Shown here: positions 12,461 to 59,835 of the stretch, one piece after another
Numbering within the stretch: the first letter of the stretch is position 1
How the letters are laid out: every line of letters begins with the position of its first letter
Origin: Spirochaetales bacterium
GTDB taxonomy: Bacteria > Spirochaetota > Spirochaetia > SZUA-6 > RPPD01
Length of the DNA stretch: 64,000 nt
Direction: 5' to 3'
Assembly: GCA_016934415.1 (NCBI GenBank)
Contig: JAFGSW010000063.1
Coordinates: 20,043-84,042 of the forward strand
The notes under the pieces: generated by a model
What the model was told of the DNA's origin: nothing
The model's database searches: none
Seen by the model: only the letters and a program-made list of their open reading frames with translations
Position numbers and translations under genes: made by a program

Positions 12461-12487
12461 GGCGACGGCCGGGACGGCCGTCGCCTT
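12459..12487 (+). terminator. Perfect 13-bp stem-loop directly after the DUF4342 stop (terminator-like, no clear U-tract)
   Basis: AAGGCGACGGCCG-gga-CGGCCGTCGCCTT. Only a distant A/T run on either side. Confidence 0.4.
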
Positions 12488-12678: not shown

Positions 12679-15600
12679 TCACGAGCATCCTGTCGTGGAG
12701 CCGCAGGTTTCGCACTTGAGGCAGGTGCCGTTTCTGACCAGCGTGAAGTGGCCGCACTCGGGGCAGGGATCGCCCTCGTACCCGATGCGCCGCGCCTGCC
12801 TGGCCTGGTTTTGTTCCGCGATCTCCGCCGCGGCGGCGGGCGGCTCCTTCTTCGCTTCCTCCTGCATCATGGTGGTGGCGATGAGGTCGTCGGGCTTCAC
12901 CTGCACCAGGTCCGTCCGGTTCAGATAGGAGAGCGCCAGATCGCGGAAGATGAAATCGATGACCGAGGTCGTCATCTTGATGTTCTGGTGCCCGGAGACT
13001 GAGCCGTTCGGCTCGAAGCGCGTGAAGGTGAAAGCGTCGACGTACTCCTCGAGCGGCACGCCGTACTGGAGTCCCAGCGACAGGGCGATGGCGAAGCTGT
13101 TCAAAAGCGAGCGGAAGGCCGCGCCCTCCTTGTGCATGTCGAGGAAGATCTCGCCGAGGCTGCCGTCTTCGTACTCGCCGGTGCGCAGAAATATGCTGTG
13201 CCCGCCGATCTTGGCTTTCTGCGTGTACCCGGATCGTCGGTTGGGCAGGAGACGTCGTTTCTTGCGCGGCGGCTCGGCGTCCGGCGGCGCGGCCGCGGAT
13301 TGGCCGCGCTTGTCATGCGCCGCGAGGCCCACGATCGCGTCGCGCAGGGGGTTGCTTCCCGGCTCGAGGCTCGAAAGCGGCTGGCTCAACTTCGACCCGT
13401 CGCGGTAGACCGCCACGGCTTTCAGCATCTTTTCCCAGGCGAGCCAGTAGGCGGACTTGATGTCGTCGACGGTGCTCTCGTTCGGCATGTTGATGGTCTT
13501 GGAGATGGCTCCGGAGATGAAGGGCTGGACCGCGGCCATCATGTCGATGTGGGCGCGCCAGCCGATGGCCCGCGTTCCGCCGGCGCCGGGCTTGGAGGCC
13601 GTGTCGAAGACCGGGTAATGCTCGCTCTTGAGATGAGGCGCGCCCTCCAGCCGCATGGTGCCGCAGGCGTAGATTGACGCCCTCTCGATCTCATCCTGTT
13701 TAAATCCGAGATGGGAAAGAAGCTGGAAATCCGGCTTTGTGAAGACAGCCCTGTCGATTTTGAGCGTGTTTTCGAGAAATTCCCCGCCCACGACCGCCGG
13801 CAAGAAGGCGGAATGCAGCGAGAAGGTGTTCTTGAGTTCGGTTTCGATCTTTTTGAGGACGGCCTGGGTGAAGCCCTTTTTCCCGAGGGCCGCAAACGAC
13901 AATGGCGAATCGGGATCGAGGGTGCCGTGACCGATGCAGTAATGGACGATCTCTTCGGCCTGCTTCTTTGTGTACCCGAGTTTTTTCAGAGCGGGCGGGA
14001 TCGAGGTGTTGATGATTTTAAAGTACCCGCCACCGGCCAGTTTCTTGAACTTGACGAGCGCGAAATCCGGCTCAATGCCGGTCGTGTCGCAGCCCATGAC
14101 GAGGCCGATAGTGCCGGTCGGCGCGACCACGGACACTTGCGCGTTGCGAAATCCGTGGGACTCTCCCATTGAGAGCGCCTCGTCCCAGACGGTGCGCGCC
14201 GCTGAGAGGAGGTCCTTGGGACAGACTTGCGGGTCGAGCCCTTGCGGCGTCACCGACAGCCCTTCGTATTCCGAAACGGGCGCGTTATAGGCCGCGCGCC
14301 GGTGGTTGCGGATCACCCGGAGCATATGCTCGCGGTTGGCCTGGAAGCGCGCGAAGGGGCCCAGTTCCTTGGCCATCAGCGCCGACGTGCGGTAGCACTC
14401 GCCGGTAAGAATGGCGGAAAGCGCGGCGGCGATCGCCCTCCCCTCGGCGGAATCGTACGGGATGCCGAGCACCATGAGCAGGGCGCCCAGATTGGCGAAA
14501 CCGAGGCCGATCGTCCTGAAGTCGAAGCTCTTGCGGGCGATGGCCTTGCTCGGAAACTGGGCCATCACCACGGAGAGCTCGAGCACGATCGTCCACAGCC
14601 TGACGGCGTGGCGGAAATCGTCGATCAGGAACTTCCCCTTCTCCCGATCGTAGAACGTTATCAGGTTGAGTGAGGCGAGGTTGCAGGCGGTGTCGTCGAG
14701 GAACATGTATTCGGAGCAGGGATTCGAGGCGCGGATCGCGCCGTCGGCCGGGCAGGTGTGCCATTCATTGATGGTCGAGTGAAATTGAAGGCCGGGGTCG
14801 GCGCACTTCCAGGCGGCTACGGCGATCTCTTCCCACAGCGCGCGCGCCGGTATCGTCCCGGAGCGGCCGCCGCTCGTGCGGTTCACGAGCGCTCCCCCGC
14901 CGCCGGTCCTGACCGCCTCCATAAACGCCGCATCGACGCGCACGGAGTTGTTCGAGGACTGGCCGCTGACGGTGTTGTACGCCTCACCGTCCCACTCGGT
15001 CGAATAGACGGCGAGGTTATGGGCGCCGTAGCCCTGGCGCGCCAACTCGAGCACCTGGAAGAGAAAGGACGCCGGCACGTGGTCCAGAAGCGCGGACTGG
15101 AGCGCGTCGTAGAGCACCGTATTTTTCCCGGGGTTGAGGCGATCGGCGCCGGCGAGAGCTTTCGCCTTGCCGTCGAGAGCGGAAAGAATGCCCGTTACGT
15201 GCCGCCGGATGACCGCGCTGCCCGTGACCAGGGCGGCCACCTTGAAATCCTCCTCGACCTTCCATTCGACGAACTGGGCGATATCGGGGTGGTCGGCGTC
15301 GAGGCAGACCATGCGGGCGGCCCGGCGGGTGGTGCCTCCGCTCTTGATGGCCGAGGCGGAGCGGTCTCCGACGCGCAGAAAGGACAGCAGCCCGGACGAC
15401 ACCCCGCCTCCGCTTAAGGGCTCGTCTTTCCCCCTCAGGCTCGAGTAGTTGGTGCCCGTGCCCGAGCCGTACTTGAAGAGGCGCGCCTCACGGGTGATGA
15501 GGTCCATGATGCCGTTGTCGTTCACCAGATTGTCGTCGACGGACAGGATGAAGCAGGCGTGAGGCTGGGGCCGCTCATAGGCGCTTTTCGATTTTTCTAT

Positions 15601-16065
15601 CTTGTTCGTCTCTGGATCGACGTAGTAGTGTCCCTGGGGGGGACCTGAAATGCCGTATGCCGCGAACAGTCCGGTGTTGAACCACTGCGGCGAATTGGGG
15701 GCCGCCATCTGAAGGGCGAGCATGGCGCAGAGCTCGTCATAAAAGGCCTGGGCGTCCTCCTCCTCGTCGAAGTAGCCGTACTTTTTTCCCCATTCCTTCC
15801 ACGTGAGGGCCAGGCGATGGAAAACCTGCCGTGCGTCCCGCTCTCCGCCGGTGGCACCGTCGGGTTGCGGCACGCCGGTCTTCCGGAAGTATTTCTGGGC
15901 GAGGATATCGACGGAAATCTGGTTCCAGGAATCAGGCACATTAATGCCTTCCTGCCGGAAGATGCTCCGTCCGTCGAGATTTTTTATTTCACTCGTCCGC
16001 ACGACGAAAGATATGCCCTGGTAGGGATCTTCGCCCTTTTTCGTGAAGCGCCGCTCAATTTTCAC
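12679..16065 (-). CDS. nrdJ: Class II adenosylcobalamin-dependent ribonucleotide reductase, long form with a C-terminal zinc ribbon
   Basis: Active-site region [22 protein letters not shown]-terminal [22 protein letters not shown] zinc ribbon. The probable start is GTG at 16065 ([17 protein letters not shown]) with a GGAGGA ribosome-binding site 6 nt upstream; the ORF-track ATG at 16122 is an in-frame alternative. A 17-bp perfect hairpin (12651-12693) overlaps the stop codon. Confidence 0.9.
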
Positions 16066-16308
16066 CCGATTCCTCCGCGGACCGGATGAAGTCCTTCGCG
16101 CCGATGCACCAAGCCCCCTCACCTTCCGGTCATCGTTTTTTTTCGTATTGAGAGTATATGAATCTTTTCGCCAATTATCAAGCGCGCCTGATTTCTCTCA
16201 AGGAATGAACGAATACATCGTTCCGTACGGCCTCTTCCGCATCCGCGGATATCCGTAATCATCTTGAGCAACGAAAACGCATCGGGATGACAAGACGGCG
16301 TGGAGACG

Positions 16309-54618: not shown

Positions 54619-55734
54619 ATGTGGCAGGAATTAATCCAAGAGTTTGAAAAGAATTGGCAAGGCTACCTGACATCGGCTGTTGTCATTCTGGCGGCGGCAG
54701 CCGCCGGGTTCATCGCGCAATTCCTGATATCCAGGCTCATCAGGGCGATTTCAAGAAAGAAAACCGATTTCCCCGGCAGTCTCGCGGTCAAGCACCTGCG
54801 CTGGCCTCTGCGCTTCGCCTTGCCCATCGTGTTCATCGCGGCCGCCTCGCCCTTCGTCAAGGCACCCCCATCCATTCAATACGGCGCGGGCATCATCCTC
54901 ACCACGCTCCTCATTGTCGTCTTCGCCTGGACCGCGATAAAGGCCCTTTCCATCGTCGTCGACTGGAGCGAGCGGCGCCTGCGCGGCGGCGGGCGGGAAA
55001 CTCTGCGCGACCGCCGCATCTTCACGCAGGTGCGCATCATCAAGCGCATCGTCGCCACGGTCGTCGTCTTCGTCGCCGCGGCGATCATCCTCCTTCAGTT
55101 CAAGGAAATCTCGAACCTCGGCACCACCCTCCTCGCCTCGGCCGGCGTCATCGGCATCGTCGTCGGTTTCGCCGCCCAGCGCTCGCTGGGCACCTTTTTC
55201 GCCGGTTTCCAAATCGCGCTCACCCAGCCCATCCGCATCGACGACGTGGTGGTGGTGGAGGGCGAATGGGGCACGATCGAGGAGATCACCCTCACCTACG
55301 TCGTCGTCCGCATCTGGGACCTACGCCGACTCATCCTGCCGGTAACGTATTTTCTCGAGAAACCCTTTCAGAACTGGACGCGCACGTCCGCCGCGGTCAT
55401 GGGCACGGTCTTCCTCTACGCCGACTACACCGCTCCCGTCGCCGCCCTCCGGGACAAGCTCAAGGAAGTCGTTACGGCGGATCCCCTCTGGGACAAGAAA
55501 GTCTGCGTGCTCCAGGTGACCGACACGCGCGACCGCACCGTGGAGCTGCGCGCGCTGGTGAGCGCCGCCGATTCGCCCTCGCTCTGGGACCTGCGGTGTC
55601 ACGTGCGCGAGGAGCTCGTACGCTTCCTTACCGAGACTTATCCCCTCTCCCTCCCCCGCTTCCGCGCCGTCCTGGACAAGGAAGACCCGCACGAACCCCG
55701 AAAAACCCGCGGGCCGCTGAAGAAAGATTTATAA
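54619..55734 (+). CDS. Mechanosensitive ion channel (MscS family)
   Basis: ATG at 54619 after GGGGGAG. N-terminal transmembrane helices and an MscS beta-domain region (GFQIALTQPIRIDDVVVVEGEWGTIEEITLTYVVVRIWD). Confidence 0.8.
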   Translation: MWQELIQEFEKNWQGYLTSAVVILAAAAAGFIAQFLISRLIRAISRKKTDFPGSLAVKHLRWPLRFALPIVFIAAASPFVKAPPSIQYGAGIILTTLLIVVFAWTAIKALSIVVDWSERRLRGGGRETLRDRRIFTQVRIIKRIVATVVVFVAAAIILLQFKEISNLGTTLLASAGVIGIVVGFAAQRSLGTFFAGFQIALTQPIRIDDVVVVEGEWGTIEEITLTYVVVRIWDLRRLILPVTYFLEKPFQNWTRTSAAVMGTVFLYADYTAPVAALRDKLKEVVTADPLWDKKVCVLQVTDTRDRTVELRALVSAADSPSLWDLRCHVREELVRFLTETYPLSLPRFRAVLDKEDPHEPRKTRGPLKKDL

Positions 55735-55898
55735 GGAAACCAGGAAGAAAGAATCCAGGTAAAGGAAAGCAAAAATAGAGAGAACGAACCGAAGTTTTCC
55801 TTTTTCGGTTTGTATCTGTTTTTTTACCGCATGGATTTTCCTTCTCTTATTTTTTCTCATCTCTCTTTCCTGCTTTCCTTTCCTCCTGGCTTCCTCAT
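55731..55898. repeat. MITE-like element copy D (168 bp)
   Basis: Left ATAAGGAAACCAGGAAGAAAGAATCCAGG starts at the MscS stop codon. Right CCTGGCTTCCTCAT. Polypurine / polypyrimidine halves. Confidence 0.6.
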
Positions 55899-55911
55899 AA
55901 ATTCTCTTTCC

Positions 55912-58900
55912 TCAGTAATAATACCCGCCCCACACGGCGCCCGCCTGGGGCAGCTCGACCGGCTTCTTGTCCCAACTCTCCTCCAGGCGGTCGGGGTCGC
56001 GGGTGAGGCGCACCGCCTCCTCGACTTGGACCGAGAGCGCGCCCAGATCGTCCTTGACCGTGCCCACGATGAGGAAGGCCGCCGCCTGCTGGAGCAGGAA
56101 GCGGTGGCGGGCGTAGACCTCGGGGAAGAAGACGGTCTCGAACACGGCGTGCTCGTCCTCGAAGCTCACGAACATCATGGCCGTATTCACCCGGGTGCGC
56201 ACCTCCTTGCCGGTGACGATGGTCCCGGCGATGGCCGCCCGGCGGCCGACGAAGCGCGGCAGGTCGGCCGAGCCGATGAGCGGCAGGCCGGGAAAGCGCC
56301 CGGCGCGCGCGGCGGCCCGCGCGGTAAAGAGGCTCATCGGGTGGCGGGAGGCGACGAGACCGAGGCTCTCCACCTCGGCGCGAAGGCGGGCCTGAGCGGA
56401 GTAATCGGAAACGCAGTCCGGGAGGCGGGGCGGGAAAAAGCCGAAATCGGCCTGCGTTCGCGGAGCACGCTCCCCACGGGCACCCGACCGCGCGTCCAGC
56501 TGGAAGAACAGGAAGAAAAGCTCGGGCCGGGTGCGGCCGTTCGAAACCGAATCGAGCGCCCCGCTCTTGATGAGCACCCGAATCTCCGGGTAGCCCGCCC
56601 CGGTGCGCCGGCAGAAATTGAAGAAGTCGACGAACGGCCCGCGCGCCCGGCGCTCGGAGACGAGCTTTTCCAGAAACGGCCGCTTGACGTCCGCGAGCTG
56701 GAGGAGGCCGATGCGGAGCCCCCCGTTTTCCACCGTGTATTCGAGTCCGCTTGAGTTCACGTCCGGCGGCAGGACGGCGAAACCGCGGCGCCGCACCTCG
56801 TCCAGATAGGTCTGGCGCGTGTAGAAGCCGCCGCCGTTGTTGATGACCGAGGCGAGAAACTCGATCGGGTAATGGAGCTTGAGCCAGGCGAGGCGGTAGG
56901 AGACCTGGGCGTAGGAGGCCGAGTGCGGCTTGCAGAAGGAATAGCCGTCGAAGGAGAGGATCATGTCCCAGACGGCGTCCGCCTCCGCGGCCGTGACGCC
57001 GGCTTTGACCGCGCCCGAGACGAATCGTTCCTTGAACTGCGCCAGCTTCGGGCTCCCGCCCTTTTTGGCCAGTATCTTGCGGAGCATATCGGCGTCCTCG
57101 GTCCCGAAGCCGGCGAGCGCGATGGCCACCCGCGACACGTCCTCCTGGTAGACCATGATGCCGTAGGTGTCCTTGAGGGTGTCGTCGAAGGCGGGGTGGA
57201 GCCTGAGGTAGGGCTTGCCGTGCAGGCGCTTCACGAACTCCTCGATGTACCGGTTGGCGGCCGGCCGGATGATCGAGCTCGCGATGACGAGGTTCTCGAA
57301 ATCGGCCTTCCCCATTTTCCGCAGCAACTGGCGCGTGGCCGGCGACTCGATGTAGAAGATCCCGACCGTGTCCCCCGAGGCGATGAACCGCTCGACGGCC
57401 GGGTCGGCGGTCGGATCGAAGCGCCGCCAGCTCAAGGACTCGCCGCGCCGCTCGTTCACCAGGCGGATGGAATCGCGGAGCACGCCCAGGGAGCGGTTGC
57501 CGAGGAGGTCGATCTTGACGAGGCCCGCCGCTTCGACCGCGTCCTTCTCCCAGGCGATGAGCGGCCAGCCGAGGGCCGACACCTGCACCGGCACGTGGTC
57601 GGTGATCGGGCCGGGGGTGATCACCACCCCGCCCGGGTGCGTGCCGATGGTGCGGGGCACGCCGCGGAGCGTGTCCGCCAGGTCGAGAAGCTCGGCCGGA
57701 ATCCGGTCGCGCTCTCCCGCCAGGCGGAAGCGCACGAGCCGCTTGATCTCAGGCTCGCTCACGCCCAGGGCCTTGGCAGGCTCGCGCAGGGAGGAGCGCG
57801 GCCCGAAGGTGACATGATCGGCCACCATGCCAGCGCGGCCGCGGTAGCGCTCGAACACGTAGCGCAGGGCCTTCTCCCGCTCGTCCCAGGGGAAGTCGAC
57901 GTCGATGTCCGGCGGATCCCTGCGGCCGCGGTTCAGGAAGCGCTCGAAGAAGAGGTTGTGGCGCAGGGGATCGACGTGGGTGATGCCGAGAAGATAGGAG
58001 ACGATGCTCGAGGCCGCGCTCCCCCGCCCGCAGGTGCGCGGGCAGCGGCGGACGATGTCGTGCACCACCAGGAAGTACCCGGCGAAGCCTTTCTCCCCGA
58101 TGATGGAGAGCTCGTAGTCGAGGCGCGAGCGGGCCGGGCCGCGCTCCGCGGCCGGATAGCGGCGATCGAGCCCCGTAAGGCAGCGGGCCCGCAGCCGCGC
58201 GAACTCCTCCTCCGGGGACAGGCCGCAAAAGGCGGGGAACACCGGCCGGTCGGAAAGCACGCCCGCGGCCGACGATTCCTCCACGAGCGAGCGGGTGTTC
58301 CGCACGGCCCCGGGCACGGCGCTGTAAAAGGCGGCGGCCCGCTCCGGCTCGGGGAGGCGCTGCGGGGAGCGCTCTTCCCGCGGCAGGCTGTCAACGTTGA
58401 CCGACAGGTCCACGGCGCGAAGAATCCGGTAGAGCTTCGCGTCCCGCTCGGTCCGAACCGCGCCCTCCACCACGGCCAGGCCCGGCAAGCCGCGCGCCTC
58501 CCCCCAGGCCGCCAGGCGGGCGAAGGGCCGCCCGTAGGCGAGCTTCACGGAGAGGCCCACGGCGCCGCGCGCGCGCAGGGCGTCGAGGAGCCCCGGGTCG
58601 TCCGAGGCGAGGGCGAGACCGTCCCAGCCCTTTTCAAGAAGATCCTCCGTCAGGCGGCGGCGCAGGTCACCGTCGAGCTCGGCCTCGGTGCGGCCGGCGG
58701 CCCGGTCGGGAAAGTACCGGCGCGCGGTCACGTCGGTGAGAATGAGGCTGAGAAGCGCGGAAAGACGTCTGAAACCAGCCGCGTTGCGGACGAAGGCGCT
58801 CGCGAGCGGCCGGCCGCCGGTTTCAAGCGCCGCGCCGACGACGGGCTTGACGCCCCCTTCCCGGCACGCCGAAAGAAAACGCACCAGGCCGTAGAAATTG

Positions 58901-59040
58901 TTGACGTCGGCCAACCCGACTGCCGCCCAGCCGGCCGTGCGCGCGTCGGCCGCGATTTCCTCCGGCGAAAAAACGCCCCTGAGGAGGGAAAAATACGAGT
59001 GCACGCCCAATGGGACGACGAAGCCTTCCTTTTTCTGCAT
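55912..59040 (-). CDS. dnaE2: DNA polymerase III alpha-subunit family protein, short form (DnaE2/ImuC-like error-prone polymerase candidate)
   Basis: N-terminal PHP domain, then polymerase core. About 1040 aa with no C-terminal tau-binding extension. Start is ATG at 59040 (MQKKEGFVVPLGVHSYFSLL) or TTG at 59049. Confidence 0.7.
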   Translation of the reverse strand: MQKKEGFVVPLGVHSYFSLLRGVFSPEEIAADARTAGWAAVGLADVNNFYGLVRFLSACREGGVKPVVGAALETGGRPLASAFVRNAAGFRRLSALLSLILTDVTARRYFPDRAAGRTEAELDGDLRRRLTEDLLEKGWDGLALASDDPGLLDALRARGAVGLSVKLAYGRPFARLAAWGEARGLPGLAVVEGAVRTERDAKLYRILRAVDLSVNVDSLPREERSPQRLPEPERAAAFYSAVPGAVRNTRSLVEESSAAGVLSDRPVFPAFCGLSPEEEFARLRARCLTGLDRRYPAAERGPARSRLDYELSIIGEKGFAGYFLVVHDIVRRCPRTCGRGSAASSIVSYLLGITHVDPLRHNLFFERFLNRGRRDPPDIDVDFPWDEREKALRYVFERYRGRAGMVADHVTFGPRSSLREPAKALGVSEPEIKRLVRFRLAGERDRIPAELLDLADTLRGVPRTIGTHPGGVVITPGPITDHVPVQVSALGWPLIAWEKDAVEAAGLVKIDLLGNRSLGVLRDSIRLVNERRGESLSWRRFDPTADPAVERFIASGDTVGIFYIESPATRQLLRKMGKADFENLVIASSIIRPAANRYIEEFVKRLHGKPYLRLHPAFDDTLKDTYGIMVYQEDVSRVAIALAGFGTEDADMLRKILAKKGGSPKLAQFKERFVSGAVKAGVTAAEADAVWDMILSFDGYSFCKPHSASYAQVSYRLAWLKLHYPIEFLASVINNGGGFYTRQTYLDEVRRRGFAVLPPDVNSSGLEYTVENGGLRIGLLQLADVKRPFLEKLVSERRARGPFVDFFNFCRRTGAGYPEIRVLIKSGALDSVSNGRTRPELFFLFFQLDARSGARGERAPRTQADFGFFPPRLPDCVSDYSAQARLRAEVESLGLVASRHPMSLFTARAAARAGRFPGLPLIGSADLPRFVGRRAAIAGTIVTGKEVRTRVNTAMMFVSFEDEHAVFETVFFPEVYARHRFLLQQAAAFLIVGTVKDDLGALSVQVEEAVRLTRDPDRLEESWDKKPVELPQAGAVWGGYYY

Positions 59041-59060
59041 ACTATACAAATGTATAGTAT
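59039..59060. promoter_or_regulatory. Perfect 10-2-10 palindrome overlapping the polymerase start codon (candidate repressor operator)
   Basis: ATACTATACA-AA-TGTATAGTAT. Lies in the divergent region between dnaE2-like (-) and a membrane protein gene (+). Confidence 0.5.
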
Positions 59061-59154
59061 TTCAGGGCGATATGCAACCGGCGGCGGGGAAGTCTTGACG
59101 CGACCCTGCAAAGCCTTTACTCTCGAATTGATCCTATGCGCGCGGGGGGCCTTC

Positions 59155-59835
59155 ATGGATATTCTTGTAATATTAATCGAAGTCTTCATCGGCGGCGGCT
59201 TGCTCGTCATCGTCCTGGCGCCGGCGTTCAGGCTCTTCAAGAAAGCCGGCGGCAGCCAATGGCCGGCGCTCGTCCCCGGGCTCAATGTCTGGAAGTTTGC
59301 GGGCTTCGGCGGCCGACGGAGCGTCCGCCTGATCGGCTTCGCATCGTTCATCGCCTTTCCCGCTTTTATCGTCCTCTACGACCTCATCATGTTCCAAGGT
59401 GAATCGCCCGCAGTGACCTCGATCGTGCTTGAAATCGTCTTCGCGCTCCTGATCGCCATGTACGTCTTTCCATTCCCCATGCTTTCCACGACCATGGCGA
59501 TGGCCGCGACGGTCTTCCTCGCCATCGCCTATCCCGGGCCCGGCGAGGCGGCTTTGCCCTTGACGATCATTTTCGTCTGCCTGGCCGCCCTGCAGGCGGT
59601 GTGGGATTATCTCGGCTGGCGGTCGATCCTGAAGCGCATGAGCCGTCCCGCCTGGCAGGCCGTGTTCCTGTTCCTGCCGGTAGCCGCCGCGCTCTGCCTG
59701 GCCGTAGCGAGCCTTCTCGCGGGGCCTCTCGGTCCGGCCGTGATCCTGGGAGTCTTCCTCCCCGCGCTTTTCACGGGGTTTGTGTATTATTATTACATCG
59801 GTTATTCCGCCAAGGTCCGATATCGGGCCGATTAG
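59155..59835 (+). CDS. Hypothetical polytopic membrane protein
   Basis: 226 aa starting MDILVILIEVFIGGGLLVIV after a GGGGGG ribosome-binding site. It is the 3' part of a long spurious track ORF running antisense to dnaE2. Confidence 0.6.
   Translation: MDILVILIEVFIGGGLLVIVLAPAFRLFKKAGGSQWPALVPGLNVWKFAGFGGRRSVRLIGFASFIAFPAFIVLYDLIMFQGESPAVTSIVLEIVFALLIAMYVFPFPMLSTTMAMAATVFLAIAYPGPGEAALPLTIIFVCLAALQAVWDYLGWRSILKRMSRPAWQAVFLFLPVAAALCLAVASLLAGPLGPAVILGVFLPALFTGFVYYYYIGYSAKVRYRAD

Follow-up and report, generated by a model that had tools for sequence, protein, structure and literature searches.

The 64-kb window analysed here, a stretch of 64,000 nt of contig JAFGSW010000063.1 from Spirochaetales bacterium assembly GCA_016934415.1, carries a stand-alone dnaE2-type gene for an error-prone-type paralogue of the DNA polymerase III (Pol III) alpha subunit, and the start of this gene is overlain by a perfect palindrome that we propose to be a LexA (SOS) operator. 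The minus-strand open reading frame (ORF) within 55912-59060 ends at 55912 and could begin at TTG 59049 or at ATG 59040. Both candidate starts (TTG at 59049-59047, ATG at 59040-59038) fall inside the right arm of the palindrome, which bears out the overlap described in the sequence-only reading, and the ATG is formed by the last two palindrome bases plus a G. On the minus strand the region reads TTGCAT-atcgccctgaa-ATACTATACA-TT-TGTATAGTAT-Gcag. Coordinates of the features are collected in Table 1.

The product fits the Pol III alpha family, as had been read from the sequence alone. Translated from the ATG it comprises 1042 aa (about 1040 had been given), is identical to GenBank MBN2353196.1 ('MAG: DNA polymerase III subunit alpha [Spirochaetales bacterium]') and has the Pol III alpha core architecture of PHP, Pol3 alpha, fingers, HhH and OB domains (Pfam PF02811, PF07733, PF17657, PF14579, PF01336). 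The match to the NCBIfam DnaE1 profile (NF004226) reaches only position 1067 of 1146, with ~25 further residues to the end of the protein, in agreement with the earlier claim that the C-terminal tau-binding domain is absent. Degeneracy of the PHP site, noted before as GVHS, is likewise borne out by the two motifs from which alone we judged it: motif I reads PLGVHS where active enzymes have H-x-H, and the second motif reads ADVNN, without histidine.

Ten of the 80 best relatives in species-representative genomes come from Spirochaetia metagenome-assembled genomes (MAGs) in which the gene stands alone, while in most of the others it follows a gene for a Y-family protein of ~400 aa, often behind lexA and a DUF72 gene. 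These cassette-type relatives belong to Thermodesulfobacteriota, Nitrospirota, Acidobacteriota, KSB1, Myxococcota, Calditrichota and two Spirochaetota. The lone genes, with the window polymerase among them, form one clade with 100% support in a neighbour-joining tree (974 columns, 100 bootstraps); the sister of this clade is the cassette clade of lexA-(DUF72)-inactive PolY dnaE2 genes (both together 100%), the two join classical DnaE2 at 95%, and all are split from the DnaE1 proteins of E. coli, Pseudomonas and Erythrobacter at 100%. This placement supports the view, first taken from sequence features, that the window polymerase is DnaE2-type and stands apart from the DnaE1 references. The PHP HxH is also lost across the lone-gene clade and in three classical DnaE2 proteins, and the region of a candidate internal beta-clamp motif is highly variable across the lone-gene clade.

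Alternatively, the polymerase could be the organism's replicative DnaE1, with the palindrome an unrelated promoter feature. The DnaE1 profile does score slightly above the NCBIfam 'error-prone DNA polymerase' profile NF004225 (558.5 bits against a cut-off of 1002, and 528.6 against 939), but the former match is partial, covering only residues 179-1016 with the C-terminal domain missing, whereas the latter runs end to end. Similarly, the NCBI name is that of a Pol III alpha subunit and a second dnaE was not seen within the window, yet the tree separates the protein from the DnaE1 references with full support and places it beside cassette-linked dnaE2, its PHP site is degenerate, and the element at its start is common to lexA promoters (see below). 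We therefore regard a replicative role as very improbable.

The polymerase gene is also a compositional outlier: positions 56001-59000 have 68-72% G+C and a third-codon-position G+C (GC3) of 0.90, compared with 55-62% for the genes on either side and 46-58% for the sequence immediately upstream. Horizontal acquisition or a distinct codon regime may be the reason.

Taken by itself the palindrome is not significant, because 0.75 perfect palindromes with arms of at least 10 nt and loops of 0-4 nt are expected per window in first-order Markov simulations, and the window indeed holds a second one with 10-nt arms, GC-rich, at 12462. A chance feature of an AT-rich intergenic stretch would be compatible with this expectation, but conservation refutes it, and the palindrome counts as real because the orthologues keep it. 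We compared 15 orthologous loci, among them 10 from species-representative Spirochaetia genomes and four more picked by protein similarity. The dyad TACTATACA-N2-TGTATAGTA, hereafter the box, lies at the start codon in 15 of 15 (loci chosen by protein similarity, 44-56% identity, Spirochaetia MAGs), with 11 of the 22 palindrome positions invariant. In all 10 species-representative orthologues (44-55% protein identity) it ends 0-11 nt before the ATG, and the four further orthologues, picked by protein similarity alone, carry it too. There is one site per orthologue locus of ~20 kb, and in the window the motif occurs once at up to three mismatches, with 0 expected. The probability that chance produced this pattern is negligible.

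Two loci depart from the single-box layout. One orthologue of the orphan (lone-gene) clade (L223, 5478-5514) carries two boxes that overlap with an offset of 15 bp, and a clear GGAGGAG ribosome-binding site follows them; each of the other loci has just one box and lacks such a site. Among the cassette loci L012-L080, the box was found only in Caldithrix (L041, 3002-3041), where two adjacent near-consensus copies lie directly after TTGACA and before an operon of an imuB-like (inactive PolY) gene and dnaE2; the remaining cassette loci have none.

A dyad over a start codon could also act in RNA, as an mRNA hairpin that hides the start codon and controls translation. For the 5' region a fold of -23.8 kcal/mol (z = -2.4) is predicted, with a 9-bp stem ending at the AUG. 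Against this, five of the 10 pairs never vary, the changes that do occur break pairs rather than compensate for one another, and the covariation score equals that of shuffles, which argues for a protein-binding DNA site and not an RNA helix. Moreover, the same dyad lies elsewhere 49-200 nt upstream of lexA or inside promoter spacers, the two L223 sites stand upstream of a normal Shine-Dalgarno sequence, and the putative transcription start at the window gene falls inside or after the left arm. Translational control by a hairpin is thus highly unlikely.

The position of the box is instead that of a transcriptional operator, with the 20-bp dyad over the start codon and a -35-like hexamer of a putative promoter 12 nt upstream. 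Most orthologous loci, and acidobacterial lexA loci as well, have a TTGnnn hexamer 12-14 nt upstream of the core. No Shine-Dalgarno sequence lies between palindrome and ATG, either here or in most orthologues. Judging from the spacing of the hexamers, transcription may start 0-3 nt before the ATG, and the mRNA would then probably be leaderless or nearly so. A LexA dimer on the palindrome would cover the -10 region, the transcription start and the start codon, and would thereby exclude RNA polymerase. Upon DNA damage, RecA filaments would trigger LexA self-cleavage, the site would be vacated and the polymerase made. This enzyme is presumably a Pol III alpha paralogue for translesion or mutagenic synthesis, with its PHP proofreader inactivated and the tau-binding domain missing.

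The case for LexA as the binder comes largely from other lineages. A scan of metagenome contigs for the arms TACTATAC-N4-GTATAGTA yielded at least 120 loci, and the Pfam families among ORFs beside the sites include Peptidase_S24 (at least 15), LexA_DNA_bind (at least 12), DUF72 (at least five), DUF4130 and PHP (at least four each) and radical SAM (at least three). Among the matches listed, the site precedes lexA, lexA and dnaE, a DUF72-PolY-dnaE2 series, dnaE2 directly or a radical SAM-DUF4130 pair, and lexA-dnaE-PolY operons also occur. At acidobacterial lexA genes the box lies over the ATG exactly as at the window polymerase. When LexAs were instead picked by protein similarity (contigs labelled Terracidiphilus, Humimicrobiaceae and Verrucomicrobiota), three of three had the box upstream, two of them over the ATG exactly as at the window polymerase, and the Verrucomicrobiota-labelled gene had the symmetric variant TACTATTCA-N2-TGAATAGTA. 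Together with at least 12 loci from the motif scan, these three are consistent with lexA autoregulation through the box in other lineages.

These data bear on two claims of the sequence-only reading. Its SOS-type operator geometry is upheld: the dyad is kept at the start of every orthologue examined, and in metagenomes lexA and further SOS-type genes are preceded by the same 20-mer, as are independently chosen LexAs. The suggestion of a lineage-specific LexA operator has to be given up, since the same box stands at LexAs attributed to Acidobacteriota, Actinomycetota (Humimicrobiaceae) and Verrucomicrobiota.

Several box-linked loci have gene contents of their own. In a Verrucomicrobiota-labelled locus (L218, 5980-8669), TACTATTCA-N2-TGAATAGTA lies over the lexA ATG and is followed by lexA, a cpYpsA-family gene and an ORF with IMS and PHP domains. 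In L210 (9960-13561; also L197), the box heads lexA, a Rad51/RecA-like protein of 189 aa, DUF8156 and a family-B DNA polymerase of 726 aa. In Humimicrobiaceae-type loci (L177, 421-5541; L217, 5782-11252), the box is followed by lexA, a Pol III alpha from a distant clade, 26-30% identical to the window protein, and a Y-family polymerase, which in L177 keeps its catalytic acids. A radical-SAM and DUF4130 pair repeatedly follows the box (L199, 4041-6511; L141, L108, L118, L091, L155, L100), several times on termite-gut contigs. DUF72 stands directly behind the box in at least five metagenome loci, and its protein is regularly encoded in lexA-DUF72-inactive PolY-dnaE2 operons (L116, L119, L123, L065, L205 and others), at the place that imuA holds in classical cassettes.

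The same arms occur in a second setting, which raises the question of whether a repressor other than LexA, either another S24/XRE-type damage regulator or a CsoR/RcnR/FrmR-family protein, could use the operator in spirochaetes. Operators beside CsoR/RcnR/FrmR-family genes (at least 24 loci within L081-L200, e.g. L104, L136 and L188) have the same 8-nt outer arms TACTATAC/GTATAGTA, and only their G/C-rich centre differs; in sequence, at least, two unrelated repressor families appear to use near-identical arms. The centre, however, separates the two groups. Sites with A/T-rich centres adjoin canonical LexA genes (at least 12 loci), lone dnaE2, DUF72-inactive PolY-dnaE2 operons and the radical-SAM/DUF4130 pair, whereas those with G/C-rich centres adjoin CsoR/RcnR/FrmR-family genes and a copper ATPase. 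Among the matches listed, two or more G/C in the centre were found at 22 of 24 CsoR-linked but only four of 30 SOS-linked sites (Fisher p = 6e-9), and just two of the 24 CsoR-linked sites had an A/T-rich centre (at most one G/C) like the ATTT of the window, where no DUF156-family gene was found among the ORFs scanned. Non-LexA SOS regulators do exist in other phyla (PMC8565304), and no spirochaete lexA with the box was found; nevertheless, the A/T-centred form goes with dnaE2 cassettes and, in at least three phyla, with canonical LexA genes, and the target gene is part of the classical SOS core. A non-LexA repressor is for these reasons unlikely.

Sequence of the recognition helix points the same way as gene linkage. 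Ten of 11 box-linked LexAs read SP(K/R)xxxDH in helix 3, and ~40 cassette LexAs without the box have other helix-3 signatures. On balance, we consider it likely that the palindrome is a LexA operator that puts the stand-alone DnaE2-type polymerase gene under SOS control; that it is an SOS operator, of a sequence type undescribed in the literature we searched, is very probable.

Several points weigh against this conclusion. No lexA from any orphan-clade genome was recovered in the LexA homology searches, the orthologous loci or the window; two such searches returned Acidobacteriota, Actinomycetota and Verrucomicrobiota names and no spirochaete, and the one LexA obtained with a spirochaete label (L047, cassette type) lacks the box and differs in helix 3. 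Because of this, the identity of the spirochaete repressor rests on analogy with other phyla, and LexA as the binder in the window organism is a strong inference from that analogy. The metagenome loci were selected by the motif itself. Neither a further box nor another SOS gene was found within the 64-kb window. The hexamers are weak, and scanning with a promoter consensus gave no sigma-70 call at the site, which leaves the leaderless model unproven. Regarding the polymerase, both NCBIfam scores are below cut-off and the orphan clade is far from either model, and the tree held few DnaE1 references and no spirochaete DnaE1.

The relation of the box to described LexA boxes is closer than the sequence-only reading, which held it to be unlike the classical ones, had allowed. 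Its sequence does differ, but its spacing is that of the E. coli-type box of Beta- and Gammaproteobacteria (CTGT-N8-ACAG, TACTG(TA)5CAGTA), with which it shares the 20-bp dyad length and the outer TACT...AGTA. The box here is CTAT-N8-ATAG, so that the G of CTGT is A, and the inner ACA..TGT is conserved here and not in E. coli. Third helices are also alike, with SPNAAEEHL in E. coli LexA and SPKAAADHV in a box-linked LexA, the box-linked form having K/R for N41 and D for E45. Both systems resemble each other in lexA autoregulation and in the control of mutagenic polymerases, but the box was found in Spirochaetia, Acidobacteriota, Actinomycetota and Verrucomicrobiota contigs and not in Proteobacteria.

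With the cyanobacterial LexA box TAGTACA-N2-TGTACTA (PMC2921402) and the Gram-positive GAAC-N4-GTTC, it has in common the core xTACA-N2-TGTAx (AC-N4-GT) and a palindrome upstream of lexA, recA and umuDC; it differs from the cyanobacterial box in having ATACA/TGTAT in place of GTACA/TGTAC and a dyad that extends outward by CT/AG. In Verrucomicrobia, the SOS motif is TGTTC-N4-GAACA and the core LexA regulon consists of lexA, a radical-SAM gene and imuA-imuB-dnaE2 (PMC4951493), which is the same make-up as that of the box-linked genes (lexA, radical SAM, dnaE2 operon) under a different motif. Some Verrucomicrobia have LexAs with a divergent helix 3 and an unknown motif (PMC4951493), and TACTATTCA-N2-TGAATAGTA may be that motif. 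The only experimentally studied spirochaete SOS box is that of Leptospira LexA1, TTTGN5CAAA (PMC3789691). The Leptospira recA and recN sites contain TTTGTATAG, which equals the spacer and right arm of the window palindrome, but the dyad axis and length differ and the resemblance may be coincidental. Two other candidates were rejected: the NrdR box has a superficial likeness but a different spacing, with nothing palindrome-like in the nrdJ upstream region, and the Bacteroidetes SOS motifs GGA-N5-TCC and CTAA-N5-TTAG do not match the palindrome. No description of the TACTATACA-N2-TGTATAGTA motif was found in the literature searched. By its sequence, the box thus seems to belong to the LexA-box family while being apparently undescribed and shared by several phyla.

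The polymerase is locally an orphan, as first stated: imuA and imuB are absent from the window and from within ~10 kb of the gene in 14 orthologous loci. Equally, the window encodes no Y-family, RecA-like or S24 (lexA) protein, and no lexA, Y-family or RecA-like ORF lies within ~10 kb of the gene in the 14 loci. ImuA and ImuB are probably not the partners to be expected here, contrary to the sequence-only reading, since the sister clade stands beside catalytically dead ~400-aa Y-family proteins that lack the acids D8, D103 and E104. Such an inactive partner is present beside sister-clade genes and absent locally beside those of the lone clade. The window polymerase resembles the dnaE2 (ImuC) of the imuA-imuB-dnaE2 cassettes of Proteobacteria and Actinobacteria in being a second Pol III alpha without a tau-binding domain and under LexA control (here proposed). 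It differs in lacking imuA and imuB nearby, in falling short of the NCBIfam DnaE2 cut-off and in its identity of ~28% to the classical megaplasmid-borne DnaE2 of Ralstonia, Sinorhizobium and Polymorphobacter (all beside imuA-imuB), which is no better than that to DnaE1. The best plasmid match (40.6%) is a Desulfosarcina gene in a lexA-DUF72-hypothetical-polymerase operon.

A closer parallel is offered by DnaE2B, which a 2026 survey reported from genomes without imuA and imuB, often paired with inactive Y-family proteins and RecA, with a few lacking any partner (PMC12926913). The likeness to these DnaE2B-iPolY-RecA modules lies in the inactivated PHP and in the sister clade's position beside ~400-aa Y-family proteins without catalytic acids, but orphan status is the rule in the lone-gene clade and not the exception. 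This clade would fit the DnaE2B description, although the tree held no reference DnaE2B sequence. The nearest relatives would work beside an inactive Y-family protein, and in this lineage the gene may have been separated from such a partner while keeping its own copy of the box.

The immediate neighbours are an MscS-type channel gene (convergent), a gene for a hydrophobic membrane protein (divergent) and a CHASE2 cyclase gene. No conserved regulator gene was found beside the polymerase, the neighbours differing between orthologous loci; the upstream neighbour, for instance, is alanine dehydrogenase in L001, L220 and L221. In the AT-rich spacer downstream of the polymerase gene (55735-55911), nested purine/pyrimidine-rich inverted repeats, with arms at 55733-55777 and 55848-55884, surround a hairpin that is a probable terminator (Table 1). 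The only other perfect palindrome with 10-nt arms in the window, GCGACGGCCG-GGA-CGGCCGTCGC at 12462-12484, is probably also a terminator; it has a small ORF on one side and, on the other, the 3' end of a class II ribonucleotide reductase gene (12679-16122, minus strand) whose product contains a TSCPD domain.

Table 1. Features at the dnaE2-type polymerase locus (positions within the 64-kb window).
Feature	Position	Strand	Remarks
Stand-alone dnaE2-type gene	55912-59040	minus	Error-prone-type Pol III alpha paralogue, 1042 aa; ATG 59040-59038, stop codon 55914-55912
Perfect 10-2-10 palindrome ATACTATACA-AA-TGTATAGTAT	59039-59060		22 nt; proposed LexA (SOS) operator
Core dyad TACTATACA-N2-TGTATAGTA	59040-59059		20 bp, within the 22-nt palindrome
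-35-like hexamer TTGCAT	59072-59077	minus	Putative; 12 nt upstream of the 20-bp core
Candidate -10 hexamer TACATT	59049-59054	minus	Inside the palindrome, 17 nt after TTGCAT; inferred from spacing
Divergent neighbour	59155-59835	plus	226-aa hydrophobic protein, no Pfam match; start 95 nt from the palindrome; apparently not part of the system
Hairpin ACGAACCGAA / TTCGGTTTGT	55784-55813		Probable terminator; dnaE2 and the mscS-like gene converge on the AT-rich spacer that contains it

A broader proposal can be made only tentatively. The dyad TACTATACA-N2-TGTATAGTA (CTAT-N8-ATAG) could represent an undescribed class of LexA box, read by LexAs with SP(K/R)xxxDH, common to at least four phyla and possibly travelling with DnaE2, PolY and PolB mutagenesis modules. 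In Spirochaetia, it might then control a DnaE2 that is fully independent of a Y-family or ImuA/ImuB partner and is translated from a leaderless mRNA, with the start codon situated within the operator.

Phyla differ in their LexA boxes, and every newly described box lets the SOS regulon of a group be read directly from genomes. For non-leptospiral spirochaetes, no LexA box has been described so far in the literature searched; the box reported here would permit regulon prediction in Spirochaetia, as well as in acidobacterial, Humimicrobiaceae and some verrucomicrobial lineages. The E. coli-type box and the present one also form a natural pair for asking how few helix-3 changes shift LexA from CTGT to CTAT. 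DUF72 and the radical-SAM/DUF4130 pair are added as recurrent companions of the box. Finally, a whole clade of stand-alone DnaE2 genes bears on the recent finding that DnaE2 is not always tied to ImuA and ImuB.

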